Positions 3,852-41,707 of a stretch of DNA of 64,000 bases are shown here, piece after piece; position 1 is the first letter of the stretch, and each line of letters starts with the position of its first letter. Source of the DNA: a virus; the IMG/VR virus record IMGVR_UViG_3300044655_001643; one strand, given 5' to 3'. The notes beneath the pieces were generated by a model, which had not been told where the DNA came from, did no database searches, and was given only the letters and a program-made list of their open reading frames with translations. Made by a program: the position numbers and the translations under genes.

Positions 3852-3880
3852 ATAGTATCAGGGTTATGTATGTTTGTCAA
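3852..3880 (-). promoter_or_regulatory. Sigma70 promoter TTGACA-N17-TACTAT with extended -10 (TGn)
   Basis: tgtcaa 3875-3880 (overlapping the upstream stop codon) and atagta 3852-3857, upstream of the vWA gene. Confidence 0.7.
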
Positions 3881-4773
3881 GTCTTGAAATTTGTTACCAA
3901 TTTCATACCATATTCATCGTTACTTTTTGGCAACATGATGTCTTTTTTGTAACGAAGTTCATTCTTCTTGAATGGTGAATAGTCCACATAGTGGTGCCAG
4001 CGTTTATATCGCCAGACCATTCGTGCTACATCAGGGTGCATTCTTACCAGCATCTCAGATTTGTTTCTTGTACCTTCAGCATTCACACCATCAATCCAGA
4101 TATTCTTTTCTAGACCTTCTTTGTGGTAAAACTCTTCAGTGTTACCACCCTTGACAGTTTGTGTTGCTGCTTTACCTTGCAAGAATGCATTGAACTGAAT
4201 CGTGCAATCACCATCTTTCAAAACACGCAGACAAATATCAGTATCTTCATTGTAACGACCACGCCAACGATGTTTACAATTATTATCTATCAATAATGTG
4301 GAATAGATTCGTGTGTTCTTTACATAAGGTGGATAACTTTGATTTGGTGCAATAAAGAATCGATACTGAAAGCCAGAGATTGGAACATTCTCAAATCGAT
4401 CAACGAAATCTTCTGCGGCTTTGAAGATAACACCAGACTCTACACGAATACGATAGTTCTGATGAAGTCTATAGAAGTCAGAGATGTTATCGTCAAGTAC
4501 CCAATGCTTGTCGGCACCGATTGAGATAGAATGATCCCATGCAAAGTTTCTAGCACGACCAGGACCATCACCGTGATTACTGAATGGTGCAACAATCAGT
4601 GTTACATAGTCACGAATGTTGAACTTGTCTAGTGCTTTATCATATGCTTCTTCATCTTGTGGCTCAACCACAATGTAGTGTGGCACTCTCATTCTCGACA
4701 ATGATTTTGATGTAATCATTGTGTCTGAACGACCCTTAGAAACGATATAAACTGGATTCGTTGGATTTGTCAT
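3877..4773 (-). CDS. TAGT / GREB1-like (TET-associated) glycosyltransferase, probable DNA base glycosyltransferase
   Basis: PVYIVSKGR, YIVVEPQD, GPGRARN, WVLDDNI (DD motif), RGRYNEDTD, KGGNT: motif set of the phage TAGT/GREB1-type GT-A family. Confidence 0.75.
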   Translation of the reverse strand: MTNPTNPVYIVSKGRSDTMITSKSLSRMRVPHYIVVEPQDEEAYDKALDKFNIRDYVTLIVAPFSNHGDGPGRARNFAWDHSISIGADKHWVLDDNISDFYRLHQNYRIRVESGVIFKAAEDFVDRFENVPISGFQYRFFIAPNQSYPPYVKNTRIYSTLLIDNNCKHRWRGRYNEDTDICLRVLKDGDCTIQFNAFLQGKAATQTVKGGNTEEFYHKEGLEKNIWIDGVNAEGTRNKSEMLVRMHPDVARMVWRYKRWHHYVDYSPFKKNELRYKKDIMLPKSNDEYGMKLVTNFKT

Positions 4774-5536
4774 TTCTTTTCCATATCAAAGGTTTGTTAT
4801 TCCATATTCCACATTTGATGTTTTCATACTGTCTTTTTTTCAGATGTTGATTGAACATCTTACCAATCTTATCTTGATTCACAATCATACCAGCAACATC
4901 ATAATTTGTAAAGTGACCCATTCCCCAAGTGTTGAATGAGTTGGCAATAATCATGTGCTTCGGATTCAAGTTGCTAATGATATCATCGACATGTTCAATT
5001 GGATTATAAATGTGTTCAAAGTATTCTGAAGCAAATAGCATATCAACTGGCTCTCCAATCTCAGTGATAGAACCCACTAAATTGAAGTTCATTCTTTTTG
5101 CCATTATTTCACAATAATCCCACTGCTTTGTGCCTCTTAGATTTATAGCATAAACTTTTGCTTCAGGAAATATTTGCTTCAGTAAACACGTACTATAACT
5201 TATACCACAACCAATGTCAACAATAACTTTGGATTCTTTGAGTTCTTGGAAGTGAGGTGATTTGATAATTCGTTTGATGTAATCTCTGCTGTATGAAACA
5301 AAACAATTGAACACATCAATGAAGTAATAGTCATGATTGTACACATCATAAATGTTTCTGGTGTCTTTGTTCTCTAGATCATCATACCACTTATTTGATA
5401 ATTCCAAAAAAACTTTATCAGTCTTTCTGATTGCTTTACATTCTTCAGCATCTACTGGAAATAGTTTGCCGTAGTCTCGTAAGAAATATTCAAACAAGAC
5501 TTGTGGTTTTTCTTTGAGAAAATCTATCTGACTCAC
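4736..5536 (-). CDS. Class I SAM-dependent methyltransferase
   Basis: Motif I IVDIGCGISYST; 'DMLFASEYFEH' post-motif typical of small-molecule/sugar methyltransferases. Confidence 0.75.
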   Translation of the reverse strand: MSQIDFLKEKPQVLFEYFLRDYGKLFPVDAEECKAIRKTDKVFLELSNKWYDDLENKDTRNIYDVYNHDYYFIDVFNCFVSYSRDYIKRIIKSPHFQELKESKVIVDIGCGISYSTCLLKQIFPEAKVYAINLRGTKQWDYCEIMAKRMNFNLVGSITEIGEPVDMLFASEYFEHIYNPIEHVDDIISNLNPKHMIIANSFNTWGMGHFTNYDVAGMIVNQDKIGKMFNQHLKKRQYENIKCGIWNNKPLIWKRNDKSNESSLYRF

Positions 5537-5883
5537 TCTTCAATCCATCTCTTCAAAGAATTCTCATCCCTTTCTAGTTTTGGATACCAGATAGACTTTG
5601 TTTTCTCTGTAAGATTCTGATCAACTAATTTGGCAAATGCTTCATAATCTTCTTTGTTTCGAAAATGAAGATATAAGGTCTTGTATGTTTTCTTTTCATT
5701 TTGCTCAAACGCCGGCATACCTACCCAATGTTTTTGCCACTCAGCATTTTGAGTATCTACGCCATCATCTTCATCATCAGATTCACCAAAAAAACGATTG
5801 AGAGTTGGTGGTTGATATTCGTCAGTCAACAACTCCATACAGTTTTCATATGTGGTAGATTCTTTAGCATCAGAAGTTTTCAT
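5533..5883 (-). CDS. Conserved small phage protein (WxGMPxF type), probable partner of the TAGT glycosyltransferase
   Basis: WQKHWVGMPAFEQ ... LHFRNKEDYEAFAKLVDQNLTEKTKSIWYP; overlaps both neighbours in an operon. Confidence 0.6.
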   Translation of the reverse strand: MKTSDAKESTTYENCMELLTDEYQPPTLNRFFGESDDEDDGVDTQNAEWQKHWVGMPAFEQNEKKTYKTLYLHFRNKEDYEAFAKLVDQNLTEKTKSIWYPKLERDENSLKRWIEE

Positions 5884-6448
5884 TTTTCTTTCCTCTAATT
5901 ATTTTCTTTACCAATTTTGTTGCTTTCTGTCTTGCCATTTTCAAAGCAAGAGGCTTCACATGATCAGTATATCTGATTCCGTTCAAATGATCAAGCTCAT
6001 GTAGGAAACAACGTGCAGATAATCCGTGTAACTTTACCTGATTTACGTTACCATTTTCATCAGTAAATTCTACTTCAATCCATGATGGTCGATCAACATT
6101 CAAAAACAATGCTGGATAAGATAAGCATCCTTCTTTGTCTTTTACCACTGGGCCTTGATCAATTACTTTTGGATTGATACAGACTAGTTGAAACTCTTCT
6201 GTACCAATTACAAACATCCTCTCAGCAACGCCACATTGATTCGCAGAAAGACCAAGACCAGCGTACAACTTCATTGTCATCTTCAATCGTTTTGCTAATG
6301 TGACCATTGCGGGTGCTGGATATCCACCAGTATATTCTGGTATTCTTTGACCGAGCATAGAGAATTCTTCTCCGTAAACACGAAGAGGTTCAATTCTTTC
6401 TGATGTCTGTAAACCAGCAGTAGTATCAATTGTTAGAATTTCACTCAT
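5870..6448 (-). CDS. def: Peptide deformylase
   Basis: All three PDF motifs: GLGLSANQCG, EGCLS, HELDHLNG. Confidence 0.95.
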   Translation of the reverse strand: MSEILTIDTTAGLQTSERIEPLRVYGEEFSMLGQRIPEYTGGYPAPAMVTLAKRLKMTMKLYAGLGLSANQCGVAERMFVIGTEEFQLVCINPKVIDQGPVVKDKEGCLSYPALFLNVDRPSWIEVEFTDENGNVNQVKLHGLSARCFLHELDHLNGIRYTDHVKPLALKMARQKATKLVKKIIRGKKNENF

Positions 6449-8151
6449 TTTATCATCCTCGAAAAGTTCTTTACTTTCTCAAATCGAATTGTGTTTGCAA
6501 ATTTATCTTGTAGAATATCACCTTTGTGACTGATCACAAACAGATTTACTTCTTCAAGTGAATGCAGAATCTTCATCAACTCTTCTGTTCCATTATTATC
6601 TAGGCTTGAATCAAACACTTCATCAAGTATCAACAAATTGGTATTGATAGAGTTCTTCAGTTTTGCAACTGCTCTCCATGTGAGCATCAGTGCCATATCA
6701 ATTCTCTGCTTCTCACCCTCAGAGAAATTATGGTAACTAAAATCATCACGATGTCTGGACTTGATAGACTCTTTGAATGATTCATCAAGATTGAAGTTGA
6801 CAAAGAAATCCAGACTTGTCAAATACTTGTTTACCAATTTGTTGATCACAGGCAAATACTGTTTGACAATATTTGTTTTGATGCCAGTGTCTTTGAGTAG
6901 TGATGAAGCAGCATCATAATATGCCTTATCATCAATTAGTTGCTTGAGTTCTTTCTGTGCGTCTTTGATTTGTGTCTGAAGTGTCACAAGTTCGGTTTGA
7001 TCAACAATGTCATTATTTGTTTGTAGATTTTTGATTTCTTTTTCAAGACGAACAATGTTTTCGTTGTAGCCTTTTATCAATGTTTTTGTTGTGGCTAATT
7101 CAATACGAACGTTTGATTGTTCTTTTACATCATTACGAATAACATTCAGTAGAGATTCATGTGCAGATAATTTTACTTGTAATTCTTTAAGTGCCTCATT
7201 GAGTTCATGCTCTTTCGATGAGAGTTCAGTGCATAGTGTTTCTTTAAACTCCACGGTAATGGCTTGCCTACAAGTTGGACAATCAGCATTGTGTTCATAG
7301 AACTGTGTATCGTTTCGAACTTTGGATATCTTGCCTTCAATCTGAGACTCAACTTTCTTGTACGAAGCAATCTTGTTCTCAATCTCAGGCGCTTTTGCAA
7401 CAGTGTCATCCAAACTGGACAGTCGTTCGACCAGTATGTTAACCTCATCAGATAAGGTGCTAATGGTTTCTCTATTACTCTGTATCTCACCATCATACTC
7501 TTTTACCTTCTCTTCATTATTCTGATTGAGTTTGTCTAGATGTTCTTTCTTTAGATCATATCTTTGCTTGAGCAGTTCAATCTCATTCTTCTTTTGAACC
7601 ATTGAATCTTTGTTCAATGACAGTTTGCTTTTTACCAGACTGTTCATTACTGAGAAGATTTGAATGTCTAACAAATCTTCAATGATGGCACGGCGATCAG
7701 CAGCAGACAACTGCATGAACGGTGTAAAGGATGCTGAACCAAGAATGACGATCTGCGTAAAAGACTTATAGTTTAGTTTGAGAATAAACTTCTCTAAGTA
7801 GTCTTGATAGTCTCTAGCAGCCGCATCTTGATTCAGCAAAACCGAATCTTGATATATCTGAAAGATGTTGGGCTTGATGCCACGAACAATCTTGTACTCA
7901 CGGTTACCAATAGAGAATTCTACTTCAACAACACAATCTCTACCGTTTATACTATTTAGAAGATTGGGTTTGTTGATGTTACGAAATGGTTTACCAAACA
8001 AAGAGAAACATAAAGCATCAAGCATCGTTGATTTGCCTGCACCATTTGTGCCTACAATCAAAGTATTTGAAGTGCTGTTTAGTTGTATCTCAGAGAAATG
8101 GTTACCAGTTGAAAGAAGATTCTTCCATCTTAGTTTTTTGAAGTAAATCAT
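6445..8151 (-). CDS. gp46: Recombination endonuclease subunit (Rad50/SbcC-like)
   Basis: GTNGAGKS, CPTC zinc hook, FSEGEK signature, LILDEVFD; paired with gp47. Confidence 0.95.
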   Translation of the reverse strand: MIYFKKLRWKNLLSTGNHFSEIQLNSTSNTLIVGTNGAGKSTMLDALCFSLFGKPFRNINKPNLLNSINGRDCVVEVEFSIGNREYKIVRGIKPNIFQIYQDSVLLNQDAAARDYQDYLEKFILKLNYKSFTQIVILGSASFTPFMQLSAADRRAIIEDLLDIQIFSVMNSLVKSKLSLNKDSMVQKKNEIELLKQRYDLKKEHLDKLNQNNEEKVKEYDGEIQSNRETISTLSDEVNILVERLSSLDDTVAKAPEIENKIASYKKVESQIEGKISKVRNDTQFYEHNADCPTCRQAITVEFKETLCTELSSKEHELNEALKELQVKLSAHESLLNVIRNDVKEQSNVRIELATTKTLIKGYNENIVRLEKEIKNLQTNNDIVDQTELVTLQTQIKDAQKELKQLIDDKAYYDAASSLLKDTGIKTNIVKQYLPVINKLVNKYLTSLDFFVNFNLDESFKESIKSRHRDDFSYHNFSEGEKQRIDMALMLTWRAVAKLKNSINTNLLILDEVFDSSLDNNGTEELMKILHSLEEVNLFVISHKGDILQDKFANTIRFEKVKNFSRMIK

Positions 8152-9215
8152 TCAGGTTCAGTATTCAGTGCCTCAACATATAATTCACGCATCAATCCTT
8201 TCAACTTCTCACTTTCAACATTCAAGGAAAGATTGTCAATATACTTTGAAAGAATTGTCATTGTATCTTCTGCTTGATCAATCACATCATCATTTTCTGT
8301 GTCAAGTTCAGTCAAATCTTCGATCACAGAAATATCTGCCACTCCTGCTTTATACAAATTATCTATCACAACATCAAACAAAAAAGGATTCAGTTTGTTC
8401 TTCACTACAACTTTCACATAACAACCTTCGTACATTGAATAGTCGAATGTTCTATACTGTTCAGCAAAGTGTTCAAACTCATCATCATAATTGAGTTTAT
8501 AAAACATATGATAGGTGTTTTCAATAAACACCATCTCACGGGTATGTGTATCAAAAATATGAAAACCCCTGGGATCTTTGTAATCTGCCCATGTCATTTC
8601 ATTTGGTGAACCGACATAGAAGATATGTCCATCATCACTCTTATGATGAAAATGGCCAGACAATACTACATCATACTTGGACAATTCTTTTTTGTCAATA
8701 CCCTCGTGGGAAATATTGCCACGATCCATTTCGAAACCGGCAATCTCAAAATGGCCAACACATATCTGAGATTTGGTAGATTTTATTTGAGCAAAGATTT
8801 CATCTTGGTTATCGTCACATATCCAAGGTATAATGTCAATATCGATCCCATCAAAACTAACTGTACTGAAAGAATTATGTACAGTAATGTTATCATACTC
8901 TTTTAGAAGTAACTCTGAGGAGTTAACCTGAAGGGTGTTTTTGAATGATACATCATGGTTACCCAATAGTGTATGAAGCGTGAGATTGTTTTCTCTAAGT
9001 TTATCAAAGAAATACTTGCGACACAAATAGAGTGAATTGAAGTTGATAAACTTACGGCGGTCGAATAAATCGCCAAGTTGTATAATGGTTGATATACCAT
9101 TTTCTTTTAGGTAAGGGAAAAAGATGTTCTCGTAGAACTTCTCTATGTATTTATGAAATTCCAAAGAATCACCACGCATACCAAAATGCGTATCACCAAG
9201 TATACAGATTTTCAT
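8148..9215 (-). CDS. gp47: Recombination endonuclease subunit (Mre11/SbcD-like)
   Basis: GDTHFG, GDLFD, GNHD, SGHFH metallophosphoesterase motifs. Confidence 0.95.
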   Translation of the reverse strand: MKICILGDTHFGMRGDSLEFHKYIEKFYENIFFPYLKENGISTIIQLGDLFDRRKFINFNSLYLCRKYFFDKLRENNLTLHTLLGNHDVSFKNTLQVNSSELLLKEYDNITVHNSFSTVSFDGIDIDIIPWICDDNQDEIFAQIKSTKSQICVGHFEIAGFEMDRGNISHEGIDKKELSKYDVVLSGHFHHKSDDGHIFYVGSPNEMTWADYKDPRGFHIFDTHTREMVFIENTYHMFYKLNYDDEFEHFAEQYRTFDYSMYEGCYVKVVVKNKLNPFLFDVVIDNLYKAGVADISVIEDLTELDTENDDVIDQAEDTMTILSKYIDNLSLNVESEKLKGLMRELYVEALNTEPE

Positions 9216-9664
9216 TTTTCGATGTGTTTTTGAGCGACTCTAGTTCTGAGTTCAGTCGAACTAAATTTGTGACTTCTGGAATTGTAATAAGTTTTTATTC
9301 CTCTGTTGTCACAGATGTCTAAACCAGTCAAATGTTTGTCTTTATATTCTTCACCACAGATACGAATAGTGATAGGAAGAAACATCAACAAATCTTCCAA
9401 ATCTTTTTCTGTTTCATAGACTACAATCTCATCGACAAATTTGACAGCGGAGAGTTGTACATATCTCTCAACTACAGATTGAACTGGTTTGTTTTTGGTG
9501 TCTGGTCTATCAATTGTTGGATCAGTTTGTAAACCAACGATCAAGTAGTCGCAAATTTGTTTACATTCGGCAAGCATCAAAATGTGACCAGCATGGAGTA
9601 AGTCGAAAGTTGAGCAGGTAAAACCAACAGGTTTTCCAATCATGTTATCAGGTAGTGTCAGCAT
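9212..9664 (-). CDS. Cytidylyltransferase-family nucleotidyltransferase (TagD/RfaE-II-like)
   Basis: TFDLLHAGH (HxGH), LIVGLQTD, FSSTELR. Confidence 0.88.
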   Translation of the reverse strand: MLTLPDNMIGKPVGFTCSTFDLLHAGHILMLAECKQICDYLIVGLQTDPTIDRPDTKNKPVQSVVERYVQLSAVKFVDEIVVYETEKDLEDLLMFLPITIRICGEEYKDKHLTGLDICDNRGIKTYYNSRSHKFSSTELRTRVAQKHIEK

Positions 9665-9668
9665 AGTG

Positions 9669-10205
9669 TTATTCTACATCATCCTCTAAGAATTGTTCAA
9701 GACCTTCTGACTTCTTTGCCTTCTTTTTCTTCTTATTTTCCTCGAAGTTGTGGATAAACTCGGAGATATTATCGTACAGTTCGAACTGTCTCATGTTACC
9801 ATCAATATCTTCATACATTTCACCTTCATCTAGTAATCCAAATTGTTGTGTTGCTTTGTACTTCACATACAGTTGCTTCTTTTCCCGCATAATTCTACGT
9901 AGAAATGCATAGTAAATTATCTGTGTAAAGTAAGCAAATGGATTCTTAGATTTGTCTGGATCAAAGTTACGGAAGTATTGAATACAGTTTTCTACACCAT
10001 CAGATATCATCTCATCACGGTAAGTATATGAAATGAAGTTAGGCTTGCGTGATAGATGTTCCGCAATCTTCAAAAAACATTCACCAATGTAATCTGGTAT
10101 CTTTGGCTCTGATGTGTTATTTTCTTTTGCTGCTTTACAATCATCACGATACTTGATAAGTGCTGTCAAAAAGTCGGCGTTGTTTACGTAGTGTTTAGTT
10201 GCCAT
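9669..10205 (-). CDS. gp55: Late transcription sigma factor
   Basis: HYVNNADF, YIGECFLKIA, NF.SYTYRDEMISDG, NPFAYFTQI. Confidence 0.95.
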   Translation of the reverse strand: MATKHYVNNADFLTALIKYRDDCKAAKENNTSEPKIPDYIGECFLKIAEHLSRKPNFISYTYRDEMISDGVENCIQYFRNFDPDKSKNPFAYFTQIIYYAFLRRIMREKKQLYVKYKATQQFGLLDEGEMYEDIDGNMRQFELYDNISEFIHNFEENKKKKKAKKSEGLEQFLEDDVE

Positions 10206-11146
10206 TATACATTACCGTAAATATTATTTTTGAGATATGTATAACCCTTGATAAGTTCTTCAACACCATCATCTAATGTGTGATATGGCACCCAACCAGT
10301 TGCTTCTAACTTTTCGTTTGACACAATGTAGTTACGCTGATCTGGATCTTTCTTGATGTCGCCTTCTACAATCGTAAAGTTTGGCAGTTGTCTCTTGATG
10401 ATTTCACACAATTCTAACTTGGAGACATTTGCAGATGAAAGACCAACATTGTAAATTTGTCCTTTCATTTCATCAAACTGATAAATTGCATGTAGAAATG
10501 CTTCACATACATCACGAACATGAATGTAGTTGCGTTTGAAGTGTCCTTCAAAGATAACAACATAGCCATCATTGACAGCACGATAAGTCAAATCATTTAC
10601 TAGCAAATCAGTACGCATACGTGGTGACATGCCAAACACTGTAGCAAGACGATAACTAATTGAGTTCTCACGTTCCATCAATACTTTTTCAACAGCAACT
10701 TTATCCACAGCATACTTTGAAATAGGGCGCAGTGGTGAATCTTCAGTGCAGAAATTGTTTTCATCACCTGTGCCATAAGCTGAATTGGTAGTAGGCATGA
10801 TGATACGCTGTTCTTTTGATGTAGCATTGAGCATCCAGAATACAGCATCTTTATTTGTTGTATCTGCACCAACAACATCTTTATTACAGAGTGGCGCACC
10901 AACCAAAGCAGCAAGAGGAATGATAATGTCTGCTTGTTTGAGGAGAGGTGTAACATGCGCTGGATTACGAATATCTCCATTTACAATTGTTAGATTTTTA
11001 TTATCGCAAAGATGATTCAGACCTGACTGACGAAACATAAAGTTATCTAATACCGTAACTTGAAAGTTCATCTGAAGTAGATACTCTACTAGAATACAAC
11101 CAATGTAACCAGCACCACCAGTTACTAATACTTTTTGCCGATCCAT
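10205..11146 (-). CDS. NAD-dependent sugar epimerase/dehydratase (extended SDR)
   Basis: VLVTGGAGYIG, YxxxK (YAVDK), RLATVFG, RNYIHVRD. Confidence 0.9.
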   Translation of the reverse strand: MDRQKVLVTGGAGYIGCILVEYLLQMNFQVTVLDNFMFRQSGLNHLCDNKNLTIVNGDIRNPAHVTPLLKQADIIIPLAALVGAPLCNKDVVGADTTNKDAVFWMLNATSKEQRIIMPTTNSAYGTGDENNFCTEDSPLRPISKYAVDKVAVEKVLMERENSISYRLATVFGMSPRMRTDLLVNDLTYRAVNDGYVVIFEGHFKRNYIHVRDVCEAFLHAIYQFDEMKGQIYNVGLSSANVSKLELCEIIKRQLPNFTIVEGDIKKDPDQRNYIVSNEKLEATGWVPYHTLDDGVEELIKGYTYLKNNIYGNV

Positions 11147-11147
11147 A

Positions 11148-12329
11148 TTATACCCTATTCAAAATGTTTACGATTTCGTCAATTTGTGATTCTTTAAGTG
11201 TTGGATAATTTCCAATATAGAAACTATAAAAGTGCATATGATCCGTGTTTGGAAAGTTACGATAGTGATCTTTTGGTACAATATTTTCCAAATATGGTTG
11301 ACGTAATTGATTACCACCACCAGCAGAGCCTCTTCTGAACTCAACCTCTTCATCACGCATTTTATTCATCAAACGATTTACAAAATATTCTGTGCAATAT
11401 TCAGGCTGTAAAACAATGTTGAACGCATAGTTGCTACAACCAACAAGTTTGAAATCTACTTTGTATTTCTTTTGATCTAGTTTAGATAAAAAGTGAAATA
11501 GATTTTTATTTCTTAGATCAACATTTTTATCCAGATACTTCAACTGATTCTGACCAAGAATGCCACCAATTTCATTGTTACGCATATTGTATGCTGGATA
11601 TGCAAAGATGAAATCTGGATTCAGTGTTGGATATTTCTTTTTATAATCATCAGACATCTTTTCTGAACCACACTCACGAATCATACCATGTGAACGAAGC
11701 ATACGAACTGTGTGATAAACTTCTTCATCGTTTGTACAAACCATACCACCTTCAATTGTAGACATATGATGAGCAAAGTAGAATGAGAAGTTTGACATCC
11801 AACCATAACTACCTAACAATCTACCATTATGCATAGCGCCATGTGATTCGCAAACATCTTCAATCAAAGGAATGTTACGATGACGAAGAACTTCCAACAC
11901 TCTGTCAGATAAACAATCAAAGCCTTGTGCATAGGTAATAAACACAGCACGTGTTTTATCTGTGATAGCATTCAGTATGCCACCTTCATTCATACCAAGA
12001 GTGTCTAAGTCGATGTCAACAAACACTGGCGTAAATCCACATTGAATGATTGATGCGATATCAGATACCCATGTAAATGGTGGTACAATCACTTCACCAC
12101 CTTCTGGATGTTTGATCTTCAACATTGTCATTGACAATAGATTTGCCGAAGCACCAGAGTTGACAAAGACTGAATACTTTACGCCCAACCATTTAGACCA
12201 TGCTTCTTCAAAAGCACGACACTCTGGTCCATTTGTAAGTTTTGGATTATCTTTTTTGAGATGTTCTATTACCAAATCTAAATCTTCTCTAGTAATATTG
12301 TCAGACATTAGCGGATACTTCATCATCAC
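11148..12329 (-). CDS. DegT/DnrJ/EryC1-fold PLP enzyme, ColD/E1-type NDP-4-keto-6-deoxysugar 3-dehydratase
   Basis: VNSGASAN, IEDVCESHGA, SFYFAHHMSTIEGG, with His at the usual Schiff-base Lys position. Confidence 0.8.
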   Translation of the reverse strand: MMMKYPLMSDNITREDLDLVIEHLKKDNPKLTNGPECRAFEEAWSKWLGVKYSVFVNSGASANLLSMTMLKIKHPEGGEVIVPPFTWVSDIASIIQCGFTPVFVDIDLDTLGMNEGGILNAITDKTRAVFITYAQGFDCLSDRVLEVLRHRNIPLIEDVCESHGAMHNGRLLGSYGWMSNFSFYFAHHMSTIEGGMVCTNDEEVYHTVRMLRSHGMIRECGSEKMSDDYKKKYPTLNPDFIFAYPAYNMRNNEIGGILGQNQLKYLDKNVDLRNKNLFHFLSKLDQKKYKVDFKLVGCSNYAFNIVLQPEYCTEYFVNRLMNKMRDEEVEFRRGSAGGGNQLRQPYLENIVPKDHYRNFPNTDHMHFYSFYIGNYPTLKESQIDEIVNILNRV

Positions 12330-13309
12330 TCCATAATTATTTTACTACCAGTGTAATCAAATTTGAACGGCACCCATATATTGATTTCGGGTATTGCTTG
12401 TCTTATTATATCATGTTTTTCTGGAGATGCAAGAAACATAAAGAAACCACCACCACCTGCACCCATAAGTTTACCGCCATAAGCACCAGCACTCACTGCT
12501 TTATCATATATGTTATCTATATACCTTGTTGTAACATCATCCGTCAATTTTCTTTTGTAATTCCATTGCATATCAAGTAAAGCTCCAATATCTTTCATTG
12601 GTGCTTCCTGCATAAACAATGCCAAAGCATCATCGGAAATTTTAGATATTGTCTTTAGATATTCCTTTGACTTGCCCGTTTTGATATTATCGACTTGTTG
12701 TTTAGCATGAACATCTGCTAATCGATCTATACCAGAAAAGCCTAACATAATATGACTTTCTAAAACATCCAAATAACTTGTAGACACTTTTAGTGGTGAG
12801 ACTTTGATATTGCCACCAGAAAGTTCAATCACATTTACTCCACCATGTGCAGCAGAGATTTGATCTTGAACGCCAACAGATTCGCCTATGTAATTCTGTT
12901 CAATGTTTATCGCATCGATTGCCAATTCATAAGGCGAATATGTTCGTCGCTGATATCGTGCAATAGCATGTATCAGTCCAACAGTAAATGCAGAAGATGA
13001 TCCAATGCCCGAACGAGCAGGTAAATCACCATCATGACTAATAGAAATTCCGTTAGATATATCATAATACTTCAGACACTCCCTTACAGATGGATGGTCT
13101 ATTTCTGAGATATCATTGACGCTTTCTATCTTTGAATAGATAATCCGGTTAGCGTGTTCAAAATACGGCGGCAACTTCTTCAAACTTATATAGCAATAAT
13201 GTGCCATGGCAGCAGTGATTACTTTAGTTGAATGGCTGTTGAACCAATCAGGGTAATCTGTGCCACCTCCAAACAATGACAGACGATATGGTGTCTTAGA
13301 AATTATCAT
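12326..13309 (-). CDS. hddA: GHMP kinase, D-glycero-D-manno-heptose-7-phosphate kinase (HddA-like)
   Basis: KTPYRLSLFGGGTD, PARSGIGSSSA, GVQDQ, GGKLMGAGGGGF. Confidence 0.8.
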   Translation of the reverse strand: MIISKTPYRLSLFGGGTDYPDWFNSHSTKVITAAMAHYCYISLKKLPPYFEHANRIIYSKIESVNDISEIDHPSVRECLKYYDISNGISISHDGDLPARSGIGSSSAFTVGLIHAIARYQRRTYSPYELAIDAINIEQNYIGESVGVQDQISAAHGGVNVIELSGGNIKVSPLKVSTSYLDVLESHIMLGFSGIDRLADVHAKQQVDNIKTGKSKEYLKTISKISDDALALFMQEAPMKDIGALLDMQWNYKRKLTDDVTTRYIDNIYDKAVSAGAYGGKLMGAGGGGFFMFLASPEKHDIIRQAIPEINIWVPFKFDYTGSKIIME

Positions 13310-14213
13310 TCAGAGTTTTCAGAATATTGTCTTTGTTCAAACCTAATTTATTCAATAGGTATTCTCTTCCACCATTTTCAAAGACATACATTTCAGGAAT
13401 AGTAATTTGTTTTACTTTCTTGAGTATGTCACTATCTGACATTGCTTCCATGACTGCCGCACCAAGAGAGCCTGATGGTGTTTGCTCATCGATAACAATA
13501 ACACCCGCACTCACATCGATTGCATTCAGCAAAGTTTTAGGAAATGGCTTTGACTGAATTAGATCAACACCGAAAATTCTATTTGGCTGTTCATCATATG
13601 CTTGCTTGACAATGTGAGCCATTTTACCAGAACCAATTACAACAACTTTGTCTTGATTTACTATATCACCCATTGCACGATACTGCAAATCAGTTTTGAA
13701 GTTGGTCACATCAAGTTCTGGTTGTTCATGTCTATCAAGTCTTACATAACAAAACTCTGGCTTATCTAAAAGTTTTTTTGCCAATCGTCTTGATGTTTCC
13801 GAATCGGCTGTAGTGTAAATGTTCACGTTCATAATTGAACGCAGACACGCAAAATCTTCTGTGATGTAATGAGTGGGACCAGCATCAGCATAACCAATGC
13901 CAATACCGACAGACATAATACAGATTGGTAAATCCATCATACTAGGACCGCATTTGATTTGCTCAATCGCACGAAGAGAGATAAATGGTGCCATTGCATA
14001 ACAGAATACTTTCTTTCCTTCAAGTGCAAGACCCGTGGCAATGTCAATCATTGCTTGTTCAGAGATGCCGCAGTGAATAAAGTTTTCTGGATACTTCTCA
14101 CGAAGTTCATCAAGTGCAGCAGCACCAAAATCAGCAGACAAAAAGTAAATGTCTTTGTCTGTTTTCAGTCTTTCGTTTATCTCTTCAATAAAAGCATCAC
14201 GCTGTAGCATCAT
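13296..14213 (-). CDS. Transketolase, C-terminal (pyrimidine-binding) subunit
   Basis: LSADFG, CGISEQAM, GLALEG, RAIEQIK, GPTH, YVRL. Confidence 0.9.
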   Translation of the reverse strand: MMLQRDAFIEEINERLKTDKDIYFLSADFGAAALDELREKYPENFIHCGISEQAMIDIATGLALEGKKVFCYAMAPFISLRAIEQIKCGPSMMDLPICIMSVGIGIGYADAGPTHYITEDFACLRSIMNVNIYTTADSETSRRLAKKLLDKPEFCYVRLDRHEQPELDVTNFKTDLQYRAMGDIVNQDKVVVIGSGKMAHIVKQAYDEQPNRIFGVDLIQSKPFPKTLLNAIDVSAGVIVIDEQTPSGSLGAAVMEAMSDSDILKKVKQITIPEMYVFENGGREYLLNKLGLNKDNILKTLNDNF

Positions 14214-14967
14214 TTATCTCCTTGCGGCATTGTTCAATCTGTTCTGGTGTAATTGGTTGCATGTAGTGCCATTCTGGTTTGTTCTCCATCAAACTGAAAC
14301 CTTTACCCTTGACTGTGTTTGCAATAATAATTTTTGGTTTTGTTGATGAAGCATCCAGTGCTGCTTCGATAGCGTTTGTATCATGTCCATCAATAGAAAA
14401 AATATCAAATTCAAAACCAGATAACTTTTGATGAATTGAATTGAGTTTCAAACAATCATCTGTCTGACCAAGAATAATCAGATTATTGACATCAATAAAG
14501 ATTGTCATGTTTGGTATCTGACGATGTGCAACAAACAACAATGCTTCCCATGTTGAGCCTTCGTATAGTTCGCCCTCCGAGATAATCACATAAACATGTT
14601 TGTTTGGATCAGCAAGTGCCATACCAGCACCGACTCCAACACCATGGCCAAGAGAACCAGATGTCATATCAATACCTGGAATTGATACATTACCAAACAC
14701 ACGCAGACATGTATCTTTGTTCTTACCCCAATTCTCCCAATCTTCTTTTGGTAGAATATGCAAGTCTTTTAGAATAGGATACAATGCAACTGTTGCATGA
14801 CCTTTACTAATCAAAACTTTATCTTCTAGACCTACATAACCAGCATGATAAAGTGTAGTGACAATCTCTAACATTGAGAATGTAGAACCAGGATGACCTT
14901 GTTTTACTTCTACAAATTTCTCAAATAATTCTTTGCGATATAAGTTTGCTTTACGTTGCAAATCCAT
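14197..14967 (-). CDS. Transketolase, N-terminal (TPP-binding) subunit
   Basis: GHPGSTFS, ISKGHA, SGSLGHG, SEGELYEGSTWEA, DGHD, TVKGKG; likely start ATG at 14967. Confidence 0.9.
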   Translation of the reverse strand: MDLQRKANLYRKELFEKFVEVKQGHPGSTFSMLEIVTTLYHAGYVGLEDKVLISKGHATVALYPILKDLHILPKEDWENWGKNKDTCLRVFGNVSIPGIDMTSGSLGHGVGVGAGMALADPNKHVYVIISEGELYEGSTWEALLFVAHRQIPNMTIFIDVNNLIILGQTDDCLKLNSIHQKLSGFEFDIFSIDGHDTNAIEAALDASSTKPKIIIANTVKGKGFSLMENKPEWHYMQPITPEQIEQCRKEINDATA

Positions 14968-14969
14968 AA

Positions 14970-16490
14970 TCAATCTCCAAGTATTTTTCGTTTCAGTTTT
15001 ATTTTCGACATCTCTTCAAGATTTTGGCGTGAATCTGCACCAAACTTTGTTTCTACAAGATTCAGGAATGGCTCATGTGAAAAGTATTTGTGCCATGCTT
15101 CATCACGGAACTTCAACACTTCTGCACCAGTCAATGTTTTTGTACGCAGAGGTTTGCAGTCATATGATAAGAACGCAAACTCTTCAAATCTTTCTGGCAA
15201 ATCCCATCCGTTATTCTTGGCGTACATGTACAATGGACTACCAGGCAATGCCATTGCAGCATAGAAGTTTGCATGTTCGGTGTTCAATTCAAGTGACAAA
15301 TCAAGTGTCTCTTGCATTGTCTCCATCGTATCTTCGGGGAAACCAAACATGTAATTACCAAGAATGTTGATGTCTGCTGCCTTGACATCAGCAACAACAC
15401 GACGAATATCTACATCTTCAAACTTGCCCTTCTCAATTTCAAGGCGTACATTTTGGTTTGCTGCTTCGATGCCAAGACACAACCAATTCACACCTGCTTC
15501 TTTGAATAGTTCAAGTTGATCTTTGCGGACAGAATCAACACGTGCATATGCCCAGAAGTTGAAATCCATACCACGTTGTTTGATGCCTTCTAGAATTGGT
15601 ATATAATATTTTTTATTCAGAAAGAACATCTCATCTGTTAGACGAACAGTACGAACACCATTCTCATACAGATATTCAAACTCTTTGAGCATTAGTTCTG
15701 GTGACCAGAAACGCATACCACGTGAATCGGATGATACTGTGCCTTGTTCATATGATGTACGATTCACAATGTTGATCATACAGAAATTACATCCAAATGA
15801 ACAACCTAGTGATGTAGAGATAGCAGCAAACGGTGTGCGATTCTCATCATCTTTGAAATAGTTGTGCCAGTAGTGGGCACGATATTTGTCTAACAGTTTT
15901 TTATCTTTTGGCAACAAGTCCCATGCGTAGCCTGGCATTACATTGTCCATATCTTTCGTTTGAACAATTTGACCAGGCGCACCAGTTGCAGCAAAGCCGT
16001 GTTTTTTGTATACCAAACCACGAACTTTTTCTAAATCATCAACATAGTTTGTTTGTAGCAAATCTAACAAACCATACACACCTTCATTGATGAAAACAAA
16101 ATCAACATAAGGTAAACCAATTACATCATATGGCAATGCAGATGCATGTGAGCCAACGAATACAGTCTTGATGTTTGGATGTGATTGTTTGAGTTGTGTT
16201 GCTAACTTTGATGCACCAATCATCATCGTGGTGCCTGAATTTGGATTTTGTCCATAAAGAACAAAGACTGCTATATCAGTTTTTGTCTTAGCAATTCTTT
16301 CTGCTGCTTCTTCAACGTCTGTTGGCTCAGCATCGAAATCTAAAATGCAAGGATCGTGGCCTGCAACACGAACGGCGTTAGCAAGAAGCAATGCCCATGT
16401 TGGAGGTTCAATAGCAGAATACTTATTCGCCAGTGCCTGATATGCTTGAGCAGCACTGCTCGGTATTACAAATGTCACCACTTTTGACAT
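14970..16490 (-). CDS. Cobalamin-binding radical SAM enzyme
   Basis: N-terminal B12-binding Rossmann domain (VFVGSHASALP, FINEG), CSFGCNFC [4Fe-4S] motif, GIEAAN, YMFGFPEDT, PGSPLY. Confidence 0.88.
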   Translation of the reverse strand: MSKVVTFVIPSSAAQAYQALANKYSAIEPPTWALLLANAVRVAGHDPCILDFDAEPTDVEEAAERIAKTKTDIAVFVLYGQNPNSGTTMMIGASKLATQLKQSHPNIKTVFVGSHASALPYDVIGLPYVDFVFINEGVYGLLDLLQTNYVDDLEKVRGLVYKKHGFAATGAPGQIVQTKDMDNVMPGYAWDLLPKDKKLLDKYRAHYWHNYFKDDENRTPFAAISTSLGCSFGCNFCMINIVNRTSYEQGTVSSDSRGMRFWSPELMLKEFEYLYENGVRTVRLTDEMFFLNKKYYIPILEGIKQRGMDFNFWAYARVDSVRKDQLELFKEAGVNWLCLGIEAANQNVRLEIEKGKFEDVDIRRVVADVKAADINILGNYMFGFPEDTMETMQETLDLSLELNTEHANFYAAMALPGSPLYMYAKNNGWDLPERFEEFAFLSYDCKPLRTKTLTGAEVLKFRDEAWHKYFSHEPFLNLVETKFGADSRQNLEEMSKIKLKRKILGD

Positions 16491-16504: not shown

Positions 16505-16924
16505 TTAGTGTAGTTTACTTGTCTTTACGCTCTTGAGAAGTTGGTCAAATTGTTCTTCTGACAAAGCACCATCATCTTCTTCATAATCTAGTTCTTCATC
16601 ATCAAGAAGTCTTTGAAGATTCGCATCCGATTCTTTCAAATCTTCACTGAGTCTTGCAACTAGTCTACCATAATATTGAATCATCTCTTCTTTCGGTTCA
16701 ACGACGGTAATGATATCTGTTGCATAAACGTTTGCGCTATTTACCTTGATAAGTTCAATTGGTAACCAGGGCATCATCATCATCATTGTTTGACCTGTTG
16801 GCATACGACGGAATACTAATCGCATTGGTTCATCCAGCTGGATCATATCTGAGTTTTCTTCTTCATACATAGATGCCACAATATCTTCACCAGTCTGCAT
16901 TCTTATTAGTTTTATGTTATGCAT
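16505..16924 (-). CDS. Conserved T4-like hypothetical protein (Sm-like fold) downstream of uvsW
   Basis: IKLIRMQTGEDIVA ... MPWLP; acidic C-terminus ending 'KLH'; usual position after uvsW. Confidence 0.6.
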   Translation of the reverse strand: MHNIKLIRMQTGEDIVASMYEEENSDMIQLDEPMRLVFRRMPTGQTMMMMMPWLPIELIKVNSANVYATDIITVVEPKEEMIQYYGRLVARLSEDLKESDANLQRLLDDEELDYEEDDGALSEEQFDQLLKSVKTSKLH

Positions 16925-18398
16925 TTTTGACCTCTATAGTGTAAAACTTGTATTTGAATTTTTCCTCATCATATATTCTAACACGGTCAGTAAAATGTTT
17001 CAATGTAAAATTCACATGTTTACCTAAACGAAAATCATCGGCAATGTCATATAACACTGCTTCAGTTTTATTATCTCCCAATCTAAGCCCACGACCGATA
17101 GACTGCAAGTTACGTACTCTGGACTTACTTGGTGATGCAAATATGACATTGTGGAGATTTCTGATGTTGACACCAGTGCTAAAAGTACCGTAAGATGCAA
17201 CAATAATCGCATTGTTTTCCTTTTCTGTTATGGCACGAACTTGCTCACGAACTTGAACATCTGTACCGCCATAAACAAAGAAAACGTGTCTACCGGTAGC
17301 TTTTTCTTTGATGAGTTTGTGAAGTTGTTTACCATGTTTCTCAACTAGATTGAACAACACCAATGAGTTGCCTTCTAGTGATACAACAAGATTTCTTATG
17401 AACTCATTCCGATACTTACTACTCACTATGTATTCTATCTCATTTTGATAGTCCCACGAACGTGACTGTTTGCAAACTTCTTCTGGATATTTCAATATCA
17501 AACACTTGATTCTAAAGTCTGCCAATTGTTTGTTTTTGATAAGTTCGGATGTTGTTGTGGATTGGTATATTGGCCCAAACAAACCTTCTAGCACCAGCTT
17601 ATGTGTTTGTGTACCGTCAATGGTACCTGTACAGCCGATACGATAAGATGCATTCTTCAGACCAGTCATAATGGTAGTCAATGACTTTGCTTTGAACTGG
17701 TGTGCTTCGTCGCCAAGAACAAAGTCAAACTGTTCAAAGTATTCTGGTGGATTCTTGTAGATTGATTGCCAAGTGGTAATTGTAAGAAACTTTTCTGTAT
17801 GTTTGTCTTTGCCTGAATACTGACGATGACAATACTTCTCTGAATCATAACCGTAGGAAGCAAAGTCGGAATACATTTGTTCTACAAGTGATGTTGTTGG
17901 AACAATCAATAAACCTTTCTTGTAATTTTTACTTTGCAGATATCTCAATATCATATACTGAATCAAAGACTTGCCAGATCCAGTCGGTGATAATAACAAC
18001 ATTCGCTTGTTTCTAACGGCAGAAATGAATGATTTGACTTGATATTCTCTTGCACCTTCTTGTATAATGTTTTTGGGAAGTTGAAGATGATCAATAAACT
18101 CTTTAGCTTCTGCTACTGAAAAGCTCTCTGTAACACTGATTGGTGTATCAATTGCTAGTTTGTAATTTCTCTCTTCACAAAACTTCTGAATGTAAGGCAC
18201 AAGACCGTGATAGATAGTAAATGAACGCAGATCAGCCAAGCGTATCTTACCATCCCAAAGACGATTCTTGTACGCCGGCATAAATTGATAGCCTGGAACA
18301 TGAAATGTAAAATAGTCTGCTAACTCCTGAGCAACACTTTTTTCACATGCAAATCGCAGAAAGACCTCATTCTGCTTATATAAAGTTAGATCATACAC
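16917..18398 (-). CDS. uvsW: SF2 DNA helicase UvsW
   Basis: SPTGSGKS, DEAH, GCTGT, STGVNI, QSIGRGLR; likely GTG start at 18398 overlapping the uvsY stop (ORF track extends to 18422). Confidence 0.95.
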   Translation of the reverse strand: MYDLTLYKQNEVFLRFACEKSVAQELADYFTFHVPGYQFMPAYKNRLWDGKIRLADLRSFTIYHGLVPYIQKFCEERNYKLAIDTPISVTESFSVAEAKEFIDHLQLPKNIIQEGAREYQVKSFISAVRNKRMLLLSPTGSGKSLIQYMILRYLQSKNYKKGLLIVPTTSLVEQMYSDFASYGYDSEKYCHRQYSGKDKHTEKFLTITTWQSIYKNPPEYFEQFDFVLGDEAHQFKAKSLTTIMTGLKNASYRIGCTGTIDGTQTHKLVLEGLFGPIYQSTTTSELIKNKQLADFRIKCLILKYPEEVCKQSRSWDYQNEIEYIVSSKYRNEFIRNLVVSLEGNSLVLFNLVEKHGKQLHKLIKEKATGRHVFFVYGGTDVQVREQVRAITEKENNAIIVASYGTFSTGVNIRNLHNVIFASPSKSRVRNLQSIGRGLRLGDNKTEAVLYDIADDFRLGKHVNFTLKHFTDRVRIYDEEKFKYKFYTIEVKNA

Positions 18399-18825
18399 CT
18401 TGAATAAATTTTTCCCAGTCAATGAACGAACGGAGTTCCCATGTTCGATTGTTTAGTTCTTTGAGTATTGCTTGACAGACTTCCACAATTTCTTCATGTA
18501 ATAATTTCTTGGCAAGATACTTATTGATATCTTCGTCTGCTTCTAGATATGTATTGATCTCAGATTTGAGTGTGTATGGAAATGGCTGCCAACCATATTT
18601 GCTCAAATCATCTTCATCAAGTTTACCAGTGTAGTATTCCCATTTGAGTTTACGCCACTTATTGTAATTGAACTCGGCTTCTTTTGCCAACAGCCGATGT
18701 GAAGAAAGAATGTTTAGATACTTGCTGTGAAGTTTCGGAATGTCAATCAGTGCTTTACCTGGTTCAGTCCTGTCGATGACAGAATCAGCAGTCCACATTT
18801 GTAATACATCATCAAGTTTGCTCAT
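18391..18825 (-). CDS. uvsY: Recombination mediator UvsY
   Basis: D..ID, IPKLHSKYL, YYTGK, YLEAD, IDWEKF; directly upstream of uvsW. Confidence 0.9.
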   Translation of the reverse strand: MSKLDDVLQMWTADSVIDRTEPGKALIDIPKLHSKYLNILSSHRLLAKEAEFNYNKWRKLKWEYYTGKLDEDDLSKYGWQPFPYTLKSEINTYLEADEDINKYLAKKLLHEEIVEVCQAILKELNNRTWELRSFIDWEKFIQGV

Positions 18826-19400: not shown

Positions 19401-19408
19401 TATTTATA
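19401..19408 (-). promoter_or_regulatory. T4-type late promoter TATAAATA upstream of gp3
   Basis: Plus-strand tatttata; gp55 is encoded in the window. Confidence 0.75.
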
Positions 19409-19412
19409 AGAT

Positions 19413-19440
19413 AAAAAAAGAGACACCCGAAGGTGTCTCT
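19413..19440 (-). terminator. Intrinsic terminator after gp23 with cUUCGg tetraloop
   Basis: AGAGACACC-TTCG-GGTGTCTCT followed by a T run. Confidence 0.92.
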
Positions 19441-19471
19441 TCAAACCCACTCTTAACGGTGGTTTTATAAC

Positions 19472-41365: not shown

Positions 41366-41707
41366 TTATGCGTTTAGTGCATCAAGTCTGTTCCAAACCC
41401 AATTTGCTGCGGCTTCTGGATCAAAAGGAACTGTTGCAGTTGGATCTTCTGTATTTGAAAAGTCAGGTTGAGTCCATGAAGAGCCGACACTTGTGAGATA
41501 TGCTTGCAAATCTTCTTTTGTAGCAATAGTTTCAAAATCACCAGTTGCAGTATCTACAGAAATACCAATCATAACAGCATCTCTTGGTGATGGTGTAGAA
41601 GGATCGGCAACGGCATACATGCCGCCAACGCCATCTTCTCCTAGATACAGAAAATCTGGTACAGTTCCTTCTTGAGTGAGTCTATACTTAATGCAAAGAT
41701 GTGCCAT
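41366..41707 (-). CDS. Hypothetical protein
   Basis: 113-aa ORF overlapping the GT gene; KYRLTQEGTVP motif. Confidence 0.6.
   Translation of the reverse strand: MAHLCIKYRLTQEGTVPDFLYLGEDGVGGMYAVADPSTPSPRDAVMIGISVDTATGDFETIATKEDLQAYLTSVGSSWTQPDFSNTEDPTATVPFDPEAAANWVWNRLDALNA

Follow-up and report, generated by a model that had tools for sequence, protein, structure and literature searches.

A putative heptose-modifying gene cassette between uvsW and gp55 of an uncultured T4-like phage, its bacterial counterparts and its relation to a nearby TAGT glycosyltransferase

The sugar islands of marine and freshwater T4-like phages have long been annotated without a known product or target. One such island lies in the virus record IMGVR_UViG_3300044655_001643, of which a stretch of 64,000 nucleotides (the window) was analysed; the virus is an uncultured T4-like phage whose major capsid protein shares 64% identity with its counterpart in cyanophage P-TIM40. 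Between uvsW and gp55 the window holds a cassette of six genes, encoding a B12-binding radical S-adenosylmethionine (SAM) enzyme, a thiamine diphosphate (ThDP) enzyme split over two chains, a GHMP kinase, a DegT-family protein and a short-chain dehydrogenase/reductase (SDR). Further down the same strand follows a glycosyltransferase gene of the TAGT family. Which sugar is the cassette likely to make, and is that sugar meant for the DNA of the phage?

A preliminary description of this locus had proposed an exotic nucleoside diphosphate (NDP) sugar pathway that is wired to the TAGT gene and armours the phage DNA. On balance, we consider it probable that the cassette is of bacterial origin, makes a 3-deoxy, C4-branched heptose, works independently of the TAGT gene and serves a glycoconjugate rather than DNA. 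With this, one phage island can be tied to a likely chemical starting point, guanosine diphosphate (GDP)-heptose oxidised at C4 and deoxygenated at C3, and to an uncharacterised cassette found widely in bacteria, among them SAR11, methylotrophs, Pseudomonas and members of several other phyla. If the order of steps proposed below is true, the thiamine enzyme and the B12 radical SAM enzyme would carry out new sugar reactions.

Probable heptose chemistry in the cassette

A nucleotide-sugar pathway built on heptose is supported by the predicted families of three proteins. The kinase (positions 12326..13309, minus strand) is a GHMP sugar-1-kinase whose top NCBIfam model is HddA, the heptose-7-phosphate kinase type (E 1e-41, under the cut-off of that model), and the top places among its PDB matches go to three heptose kinases, 3K85, 4USK and 4N3O (E 1e-34 to 2e-31). 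The SDR (10205..11146, minus strand) aligns end to end (residues 4-312, E 2e-107) with PDB 6VO6/6VO8, for which the molecule name is 'putative sugar-nucleotide epimerase/dehydratease' and which we take to be Cj1427, the GDP-heptose C4-dehydrogenase of C. jejuni. At the column of the dehydratase acid/base motif the phage SDR and 6VO6/6VO8 both read T-N-S; this is presumably the position where 4,6-dehydratases carry their acid/base T-D/S-E. Since the phage protein has T-N-S and not the acid/base pair, it should oxidise C4 with the 6-hydroxyl kept, and thus resemble a C4-dehydrogenase more than a 4,6-dehydratase.

The third protein belongs to the DegT family (11148..12329, minus strand, E 3e-63) and has ColD as its best PDB match (E 3e-52). 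When it is aligned with wild-type, H188N and H188K ColD, a histidine falls on ColD His188, within the motif A-H-H where ColD has S-H-H. DegT aminotransferases carry their Schiff-base lysine in this column. Because a histidine occupies it here, the protein is predicted to be a 3-dehydratase dependent on pyridoxamine 5'-phosphate (PMP).

In vitro, Cj1427 and the C3-dehydratase of C. jejuni HS:5 together turn GDP-heptose into GDP-3-deoxy-4-keto-heptose, with glutamate and alpha-ketoglutarate as co-substrates (PMC10680097). Given this result and the similarity of the phage SDR to the presumed Cj1427, the expected intermediate is 3-deoxy and not 3,6-dideoxy. The 3,6-dideoxy sugar of the preliminary description thus finds no support, as the SDR looks more like a C4-dehydrogenase than a 4,6-dehydratase. 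Its heptose route, on the other hand, has gained ground: to the HddA-like kinase, the C4-dehydrogenase-like SDR and the ColD-type enzyme can be added bacterial cassettes accompanied by GmhA and an HddC-type nucleotidyltransferase.

The capsular GDP-heptose modification of C. jejuni is similar in its HddA-type kinase, its SDR close to 6VO6/6VO8 and its C3-dehydratase, which depends on pyridoxal 5'-phosphate or PMP (PMC10680097). However, the C. jejuni loci contain neither a thiamine enzyme nor a B12 radical SAM enzyme, and they have their own epimerases and C4-reductases, which are absent here. Further, the window lacks GmhA, GmhB and HddC.

The cassette in phages and bacteria

Phage relatives of the locus were fetched with TAGT and gp55 as anchors and all genes of the run were mapped; these loci are not independent of each other. 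The B12 radical SAM protein of the window has counterparts that are 76-99% identical in 79 IMG/VR contigs, while a tblastn search with it against 50,697 phage records gave no match, and neither did a near-identity DNA search with the region. Across the relatives the core of B12 radical SAM enzyme, kinase, ColD-like enzyme and SDR is constant. None lacks a thiamine pair, but the type of pair changes from one to another: it can be transketolase-like, a small version of pyruvate dehydrogenase E1 (PDH-E1), or a full E1 alpha/beta pair. In about half of the phage loci a 1119-bp segment stands in place of the transketolase-like pair and encodes a 199-aa PDH-E1-alpha-like and a 176-aa beta-like protein.

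To find bacterial versions, one genome per prokaryotic species was scanned with the aligned B12 radical SAM sequences of the phages. This gave 80 loci, with 39-59% identity to the phage enzyme; most have the kinase, the ColD-like enzyme, the SDR and a thiamine pair next to the B12 radical SAM gene, in variable order. The hosts include Methylobacter, Methylomonas and Methylomicrobium (Methylococcaceae), several Pseudomonas species, Methylophilaceae and Burkholderiaceae, many single-cell genomes of SAR11 and SAR116, Planctomycetota, Verrucomicrobiota and others. Between phages and bacteria the cassette proteins are 40-69% identical and the gene order is shuffled; for the window's B12 radical SAM enzyme the identity to homologues in bacterial cassettes is 55-59%. 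That these genes keep together across phyla although their order is shuffled is good reason to see the five functions as a single pathway.

The surroundings of the bacterial cassettes tell where such a pathway may begin and end. In Methylobacter tundripaludum the order is Methyltransf_21, GT4, GT2, a VTT-domain protein, GT2, the cassette with a second SDR, an NTP_transferase of the HddC type, SIS_2 (GmhA) and Wzm/Wzt; this is an O-antigen locus of the ABC-transporter type. A SAR11-like contig holds GmhA, the cassette, a TylC3-like C-methyltransferase, a second SDR, an ABC exporter, GT2 and NeuB/NeuC. In a metagenome-assembled genome of Burkholderiaceae (L343:13356-16679) the cassette and a second SDR are found with a nucleotidyltransferase of the ManC (GDP) type and a 1107-aa flagellin gene, which suggests that the flagellin is glycosylated with the same sugar. 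The three contexts give independent support for a start from GDP-heptose and for a surface glycoconjugate as the end point in bacteria. No paper came up in a literature search that combined transketolase, radical SAM, heptose and O-antigen.

The history of the cassette was studied with a quick tree of the B12 radical SAM proteins, rooted at the midpoint for display only. In it the main phage clade is monophyletic with a support of 100 and lies together with alphaproteobacterial copies in a larger clade of bacteria. Phages with the transketolase type and with the small PDH type are intermixed within it, so the thiamine module has been exchanged in place. A second, more distant phage type, from the loci L182 and L198, branches elsewhere, in a clade with Betaproteobacteria, although its cassette lies in the same slot between uvsW and gp55. 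The cassette has therefore entered this slot at least twice. In view of the sequence relationships, the phage cassette is best described as captured horizontally from bacterial cell-surface sugar loci. At least two entries together with the swaps of the thiamine module point to strong, diversifying selection on the structure of the sugar.

In the two loci of the second type (L182:1614-10008 and L198:687-9954) the order is cupin, HAD phosphatase, B12 radical SAM enzyme, DJ-1/PfpI, E1 alpha, E1 beta, kinase, ColD-like enzyme, SDR and a YunG-like gene. Their E1 alpha and beta chains are full-size, and the layout mirrors that of 'Ca. Methylopumilus' (L292).

The slot between uvsW and gp55 is a recurrent insertion hotspot, and many relatives hold no cargo in it. 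Three slots of the region vary independently: the cassette between uvsW and gp55, a cytidylyltransferase gene between gp55 and gp47, and the slot between the peptide deformylase and phrog_459 genes, where the TAGT gene of the window lies. Of the loci without the cassette 20 have the cytidylyltransferase, and of those with the cassette 34 lack it. Other cargo seen between uvsW and gp55 consists of a DegT-like gene with three open reading frames (ORFs) in L174:3490-6918 and of 3-kb inserts in L210 (400-3304) and L215.

The cassette is thus both a variant of known, functionally unexplained phage sugar islands and a member of an uncharacterised bacterial pathway. Among the former are the islands of cyanomyophages (P-TIM68 gp180-197, S-SM2 SSM2_191-209 and ACG-2014f gp209-221), which are T4-like and of the same broad group. 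They carry epimerases, a small PDH-E1-like thiamine enzyme, kinases, RfaE-II-like transferases, phosphoheptose isomerase and glycosyltransferases, and in ACG-2014f a ColD-like gene is found among the glycosyltransferases. However, these islands lie in a hypervariable region near hli genes and include glycosyltransferases, while the cassette of the window sits in the conserved uvsW-gp55 core; further, the search of the 50,697 phage records gave no B12 radical SAM match in them.

The putative thiamine step and the acceptor of the sugar

The two chains of the thiamine enzyme are encoded at 14197..14973 (N-terminal, PP-binding chain; Pfam Transketolase_N) and 13296..14213 (C-terminal chain; Pfam Transket_pyr and Transketolase_C), both on the minus strand. 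All three transketolase domains (PP, Pyr and C) are present, spread over the two chains. The best PDB match of the first is the N-terminal chain of the split transketolase of Carboxydothermus (6YAK, E 2e-40), and that of the second is 6YAJ (E 4e-24). In our own residue mapping the ThDP-binding G-D-G reads S-E-G and one phosphate-binding serine is an alanine, and the other transketolase residues compared (the catalytic glutamate, the donor-binding histidine pair and the phosphate-binding Arg, His and Arg) are kept.

This enzyme could act at either end of the pathway, and of the two roles we favour, with fair confidence, a tailoring step in which it branches the sugar rather than the supply of sedoheptulose-7-phosphate (sedoheptulose-7-P). 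A true transketolase that boosts sedoheptulose-7-P, with an unbranched 3-deoxy-heptose methylated by the B12 radical SAM enzyme as product, is a possible but doubtful alternative. It is consistent with the best PDB match being a biochemically genuine split transketolase, and with the two donor-binding histidines and three of the four phosphate-binding residues of true transketolases being kept in the same mapping. It would also suit the relative G001, which encodes a GmhA-like protein and a cyclase resembling dehydroquinate synthase (DHQS) and so may hold two consumers of sedoheptulose-7-P, and the cyanophages P-TIM68 and S-SM2, where a small thiamine enzyme lies beside a kinase, an RfaE-II-like transferase and a phosphoheptose isomerase. 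What speaks for the branching role is that about half of the relatives use PDH-E1-like pairs, and E1-type enzymes are not expected to make sedoheptulose-7-P; that some bacterial cassettes hold two different thiamine pairs; and that free-living bacteria with the cassette should already own a housekeeping transketolase and need no extra one. Further, the thiamine pair always accompanies the two enzymes that would produce a 3-deoxy-4-keto sugar, an established acceptor for thiamine-dependent branching, as with YerE, ErwE and MMAR_2332 (PMC9306805). Branching enzymes of two subunits are also established, namely AviB1/B2 and Pau11/12 (PMC4753412).

Among the sugars proposed in the preliminary description, a secondary idea, a branched sugar derived from the thiamine enzyme, fits best. 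The pathways to yersiniose (E1, YerE and YerF) and to erwiniose and caryophyllose (ErwE, MMAR_2332) are alike in that a 3-dehydratase makes a 3-deoxy-4-keto NDP-sugar which a thiamine enzyme then branches, and AviB1/AviB2-type enzymes have two chains as the phage enzyme has. These pathways differ in that they start from hexoses (CDP- or TDP-6-deoxy sugars), and YerE and ErwE are of the acetolactate-synthase-like branch while the phage enzyme, for which branching is a predicted step, is of the transketolase/E1 branch. We know of no thiamine-dependent branched-sugar pathway that includes a B12 radical SAM enzyme. A switch from a transketolase-type donor (a glycolaldehyde unit) to a pyruvate-type one (an acetyl or hydroxyethyl unit) would alter the branch, which would fit diversifying selection on the sugar. 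The idea that erwiniose and caryophyllose are themselves chain-extended heptoses from such a cassette was dropped, as they are acyl-branched hexoses made by YerE-type enzymes (PMC9306805).

The B12 radical SAM enzyme (class B; 14970..16490, minus strand; Pfam B12-binding and Radical_SAM) is the first gene of the cassette. Its top NCBIfam models, HpnJ and BchE, score far under their cut-offs, and to HpnJ, BchE, PhpK and AprD4 it is only distantly related. Our guess is a C-methylation or a skeletal rearrangement. A phosphonate pathway, considered for the PhpK-like radical SAM matches, was rejected: the sugar enzymes are unambiguous and no PEP mutase was seen among the genes scanned in or near the cluster.

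Put in order, the branched-heptose pathway would begin with GmhA, either from the host or encoded elsewhere by the phage, isomerising sedoheptulose-7-P. The HddA-like kinase would then phosphorylate C1, and a phosphatase and a nucleotidyltransferase from outside the cassette could yield the NDP-heptose. Going by its family, the Cj1427-like SDR would oxidise C4 without 6-deoxygenation, and the ColD-like PMP enzyme would remove the 3-hydroxyl to give a 3-deoxy-4-keto-heptose nucleotide. The two-chain thiamine enzyme may then add a two-carbon unit at the 4-keto group, like YerE or AviB1/B2, and the B12 radical SAM enzyme may carry out a further C-methylation or change of the carbon skeleton.

Several points weigh against this pathway or against its independence of TAGT. 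The HddA match of the kinase has 143 bits against a cut-off of 600, the equation of 6VO6/6VO8 with Cj1427 is tentative, with the molecule name in its favour, and what the B12 radical SAM enzyme does is a guess. The transketolase residues kept in the two thiamine chains also fit a supply of sedoheptulose-7-P. The window has no C4 or side-chain reductase, and no glycosyltransferase adjoins the cassette; as GmhA, GmhB and HddC are lacking too, the start and the end of the pathway are not encoded locally. Finally, TAGT is found in about 70% of the cassette-bearing relatives and in about 10% of an unbiased cassette-less sample, two samples that are phylogenetically dependent.

The last point concerns the acceptor. 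If the cassette fed an exotic NDP-sugar to the TAGT enzyme, the sugar would go onto a modified DNA base, the adjacent methyltransferase might O-methylate it, and the phage would be protected from restriction and CRISPR. Such a model is attractive, since the only characterised TAGT members act on DNA, as the beta-glucosyl-HMC-alpha-glucosyltransferase of T2/T6 (HMC, hydroxymethylcytosine) does (PMC13216743, PMC13390438). Phages do make their own NDP-sugars for DNA, such as UDP-arabinose in RB69/DLP3 (PMC13326640), and heptose on 5-hydroxymethylcytosine (5hmC) is known from metavirome clusters (bioRxiv 10.1101/2023.12.21.572611). The closest TAGT homologues of cultured phages lie among replication genes, and a DruA-like gene as the alternative occupant of the TAGT slot hints at a hotspot of defence or counter-defence; DruA is a protein of the Druantia defence system. 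Further, there is the enrichment of TAGT among cassette-bearing relatives. In the unbiased, gp55-anchored sample TAGT occurs in 2 of 4 loci with the cassette and in 2 of about 21 without it, an enrichment that is weak and inseparable from shared ancestry.

Against this model, all four combinations exist. TAGT is present in 21 loci with the cassette and in 27 without it, the DruA-like gene in 4 with and 19 without. One relative, L168, is 94-99% identical to the window over five shared genes and has the cassette (with the SDR at the contig end) together with the DruA-like gene in the place of TAGT; G001, at 133 kb (75% complete), carries the cassette but TAGT nowhere; and in many lineages orf116, the 116-aa ORF that precedes TAGT, and TAGT are present while uvsW adjoins gp55. 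A functional tie between the cassette and the TAGT module is thus not supported, and the cytidylyltransferase, as seen above, is independent of the cassette as well. No gene of the ThyA family (PF00303, to which hydroxymethylases and 5-hydroxycytosine synthases belong) or of the TET/JBP family (PF12851) was found in the window, nor did any match rise above noise in ten related records; these reach up to 152 kb, are 35-85% complete according to CheckV and include the TAGT-bearing G008 (152 kb, 85% complete). The four cultured phages with the closest TAGT homologues all carry a ThyA-family gene. The methyltransferase beside TAGT has no match to a DNA C5-methyltransferase family, and the bacterial homologues of the cassette serve surface glycans.

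The preliminary description had named independent occurrence of the cluster from TAGT and hydroxymethylase genes as the result that would speak against DNA, and this is what is seen among the relatives. We regard its DNA model as unlikely and retain it at that level because every related record is incomplete. A version in which a sugar of a nine-carbon class not described before, a 3-deoxy heptose with a thiamine-derived C2 branch, altered by the B12 radical SAM enzyme, is put on DNA by the split TAGT and capped by the methyltransferase, with a route to the base that needs neither ThyA nor TET, is more improbable still. Known systems of phage DNA glycosylation (arabinosyl-5-hydroxycytosine in RB69/DLP3/HY126, and the clusters for 5hmC-heptose and for 5hmC with 3-deoxy-D-manno-octulosonic acid) resemble the window in having phage kinase and nucleotidyltransferase genes for a non-standard NDP-sugar and a TAGT-family glycosyltransferase on the same strand. 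However, they always include an enzyme for the acceptor base, either a ThyA homologue or a methyltransferase with TET, and the glycosyltransferase lies in the same cluster; in the window no such base enzyme was found, and among the relatives the glycosyltransferase is present or absent regardless of the sugar genes. Proximity of TAGT to genes of sugar metabolism is therefore no proof of DNA glycosylation.

In our view a protein or polysaccharide glycoconjugate, of the host envelope or the virion, is more likely as acceptor than DNA. That it is specifically the virion, with the sugar on capsid, tail or fibre proteins, is suggested by analogy with bacterial flagellin and with the glycosylated virions of mycobacteriophages, and we think it improbable. 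The cassette does lie directly downstream of capsid and tail-tube-like genes, behind a late-promoter-like site and with no terminator between, and one bacterial cassette adjoins the giant flagellin gene. Opposed to this, no glycosyltransferase is linked to the cassette; Pfam gives no match for a putative GT-A protein at 41688-42431, whose homologues are shared by relatives that have the cassette and relatives that lack it. To our knowledge, virion glycosylation has not been reported for T4-like phages.

Flanking genes and expression signals

All genes of the run are on the minus strand, with overlaps or with gaps of no more than 14 nt between neighbours. Read as transcribed, they are uvsY, uvsW, a DUF6561 gene, the six cassette genes in the order B12 radical SAM enzyme, N chain, Pyr plus C chain, kinase, DegT-family protein and SDR, then gp55, a cytidylyltransferase-fold protein, gp47, gp46, peptide deformylase, orf116, a class I methyltransferase, TAGT, a phrog_459 protein and a CobS-like ATPase. 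The upstream border of the cargo slot is formed by the core genes uvsW and DUF6561 (16505..18422; Pfam UvsW_N, ResIII, Helicase_C and DUF6561) and the downstream border by the core gene for the gp55 late sigma factor (9669..10205; phrog_234, E 1e-62). In a slot of its own, the cytidylyltransferase-fold nucleotidyltransferase (9212..9664; Pfam CTP_transf_like) is of the RfaE domain II or TagD-like kind, with 81 bits to the NCBIfam model rfaE_dom_II against a cut-off of 181.

In its layout the locus agrees with the preliminary description: the six packed genes lie between uvsW and gp55 where it had placed them, the SDR stop overlaps the gp55 start in a TAATG at 10203-10207, the cytidylyltransferase follows gp55, and the methyltransferase and TAGT come further down the run. 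The absence of GmhA, GmhB and HddC was also confirmed, as tblastn with the proteins of relatives found no copy of GmhA, of an HddC-type nucleotidyltransferase or of the HAD phosphatase in the window.

In G001 a GmhA-like protein is encoded about 55 kb away from the cassette. The NTP_transferase of this phage lies in a separate cluster with an APH-type kinase, a methyltransferase, the DHQS-like sugar-phosphate cyclase and an SDR. This cluster (L339:5857-12247) lies about 20 kb past the CobS-like gene and has eight overlapping genes, DUF7796 among them; it may be a second pathway fed by sedoheptulose-7-P.

Upstream of the run, on the minus strand, the T4 late-promoter consensus TATAAATA occurs at 19401-19408. 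It is a consensus match only, with 4 matches in the window where 3.8 are expected by chance. A strong terminator-like hairpin (19417-19442) follows the major capsid gene, and after it the consensus precedes the tail-tube-like gene, uvsY and uvsW. Behind this late-promoter-like site the next strong terminator is only found at 1521-1548, so the recombination genes and the cassette may be read late. The claim that the cassette is not under late promoters is thereby left unproven, and the argument for a DNA target from its pre-late location is weak.

The catalytic part of TAGT (3877..4773, minus strand) is a GT-A glycosyltransferase with a strong match to PF20691 (E 5e-44, 151 bits against a gathering score of 27.5), the family of the T2/T6 enzymes. 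It is 46-52% identical to proteins of the Aeromonas phages Aeh1, phiAS5 and 65, Tenacibaculum phage PTm1 and Vibrio phage Kuja, and belongs to the Aeh1-like group of 'solitary TAGTs'. Solitary TAGTs, of which function and substrates are unknown, occur in 288 of 753 phage genomes that encode glycosyltransferases (PMC13216743). From the T2/T6 enzyme the protein of the window differs in being solitary, in being split over two genes and in the lack of a hydroxymethylase in the window and the relatives. Of the window genes scanned, none was recognised as an alpha- or beta-glucosyltransferase.

The other part of the split is orf116 (5533..5883, minus strand). It has no Pfam or PHROG match, but its residues 52-116 align with positions 31-96 of the full-length TAGT protein from Aeh1 (E 4e-12); it also aligns with gp80 of Paraglaciecola virus GD1 (E 3e-9). 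Since its C-terminal half is homologous to the N-terminal domain of long TAGTs, TAGT has been split into two genes in this lineage. In all TAGT-bearing relatives with upstream coverage orf116 precedes TAGT. An AlphaFold2 model of orf116 with 25 homologues was too poor for use, with a predicted local distance difference test of 59 and a predicted template modelling score of 0.22.

Between the two parts lies the class I SAM methyltransferase (4736..5536, minus strand), which has only weak Methyltransf_31/23 matches, no informative PDB relative and no Pfam match to a DNA-methylase family. Some relatives have a second divergent TAGT or a GT1-like gene in its place, and in others it comes after TAGT. 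The slot between the deformylase and phrog_459 genes is essentially binary, with either orf116 and TAGT, sometimes joined by one of these three genes, or the DruA-like gene.

The DruA-like gene (425-442 aa; PF14236, E about 5e-20) is seen at L168:5212-6489, L341:139-1467 (G001), L189:10581-11858 and L181:14446-15726, and thus alternates with the TAGT module in lytic T4-like phages. The ORF at 41688-42431, which had been tried as a cassette-linked GT-A enzyme and rejected, has homologues of 36-46% identity beyond the CobS-like gene in five relatives.

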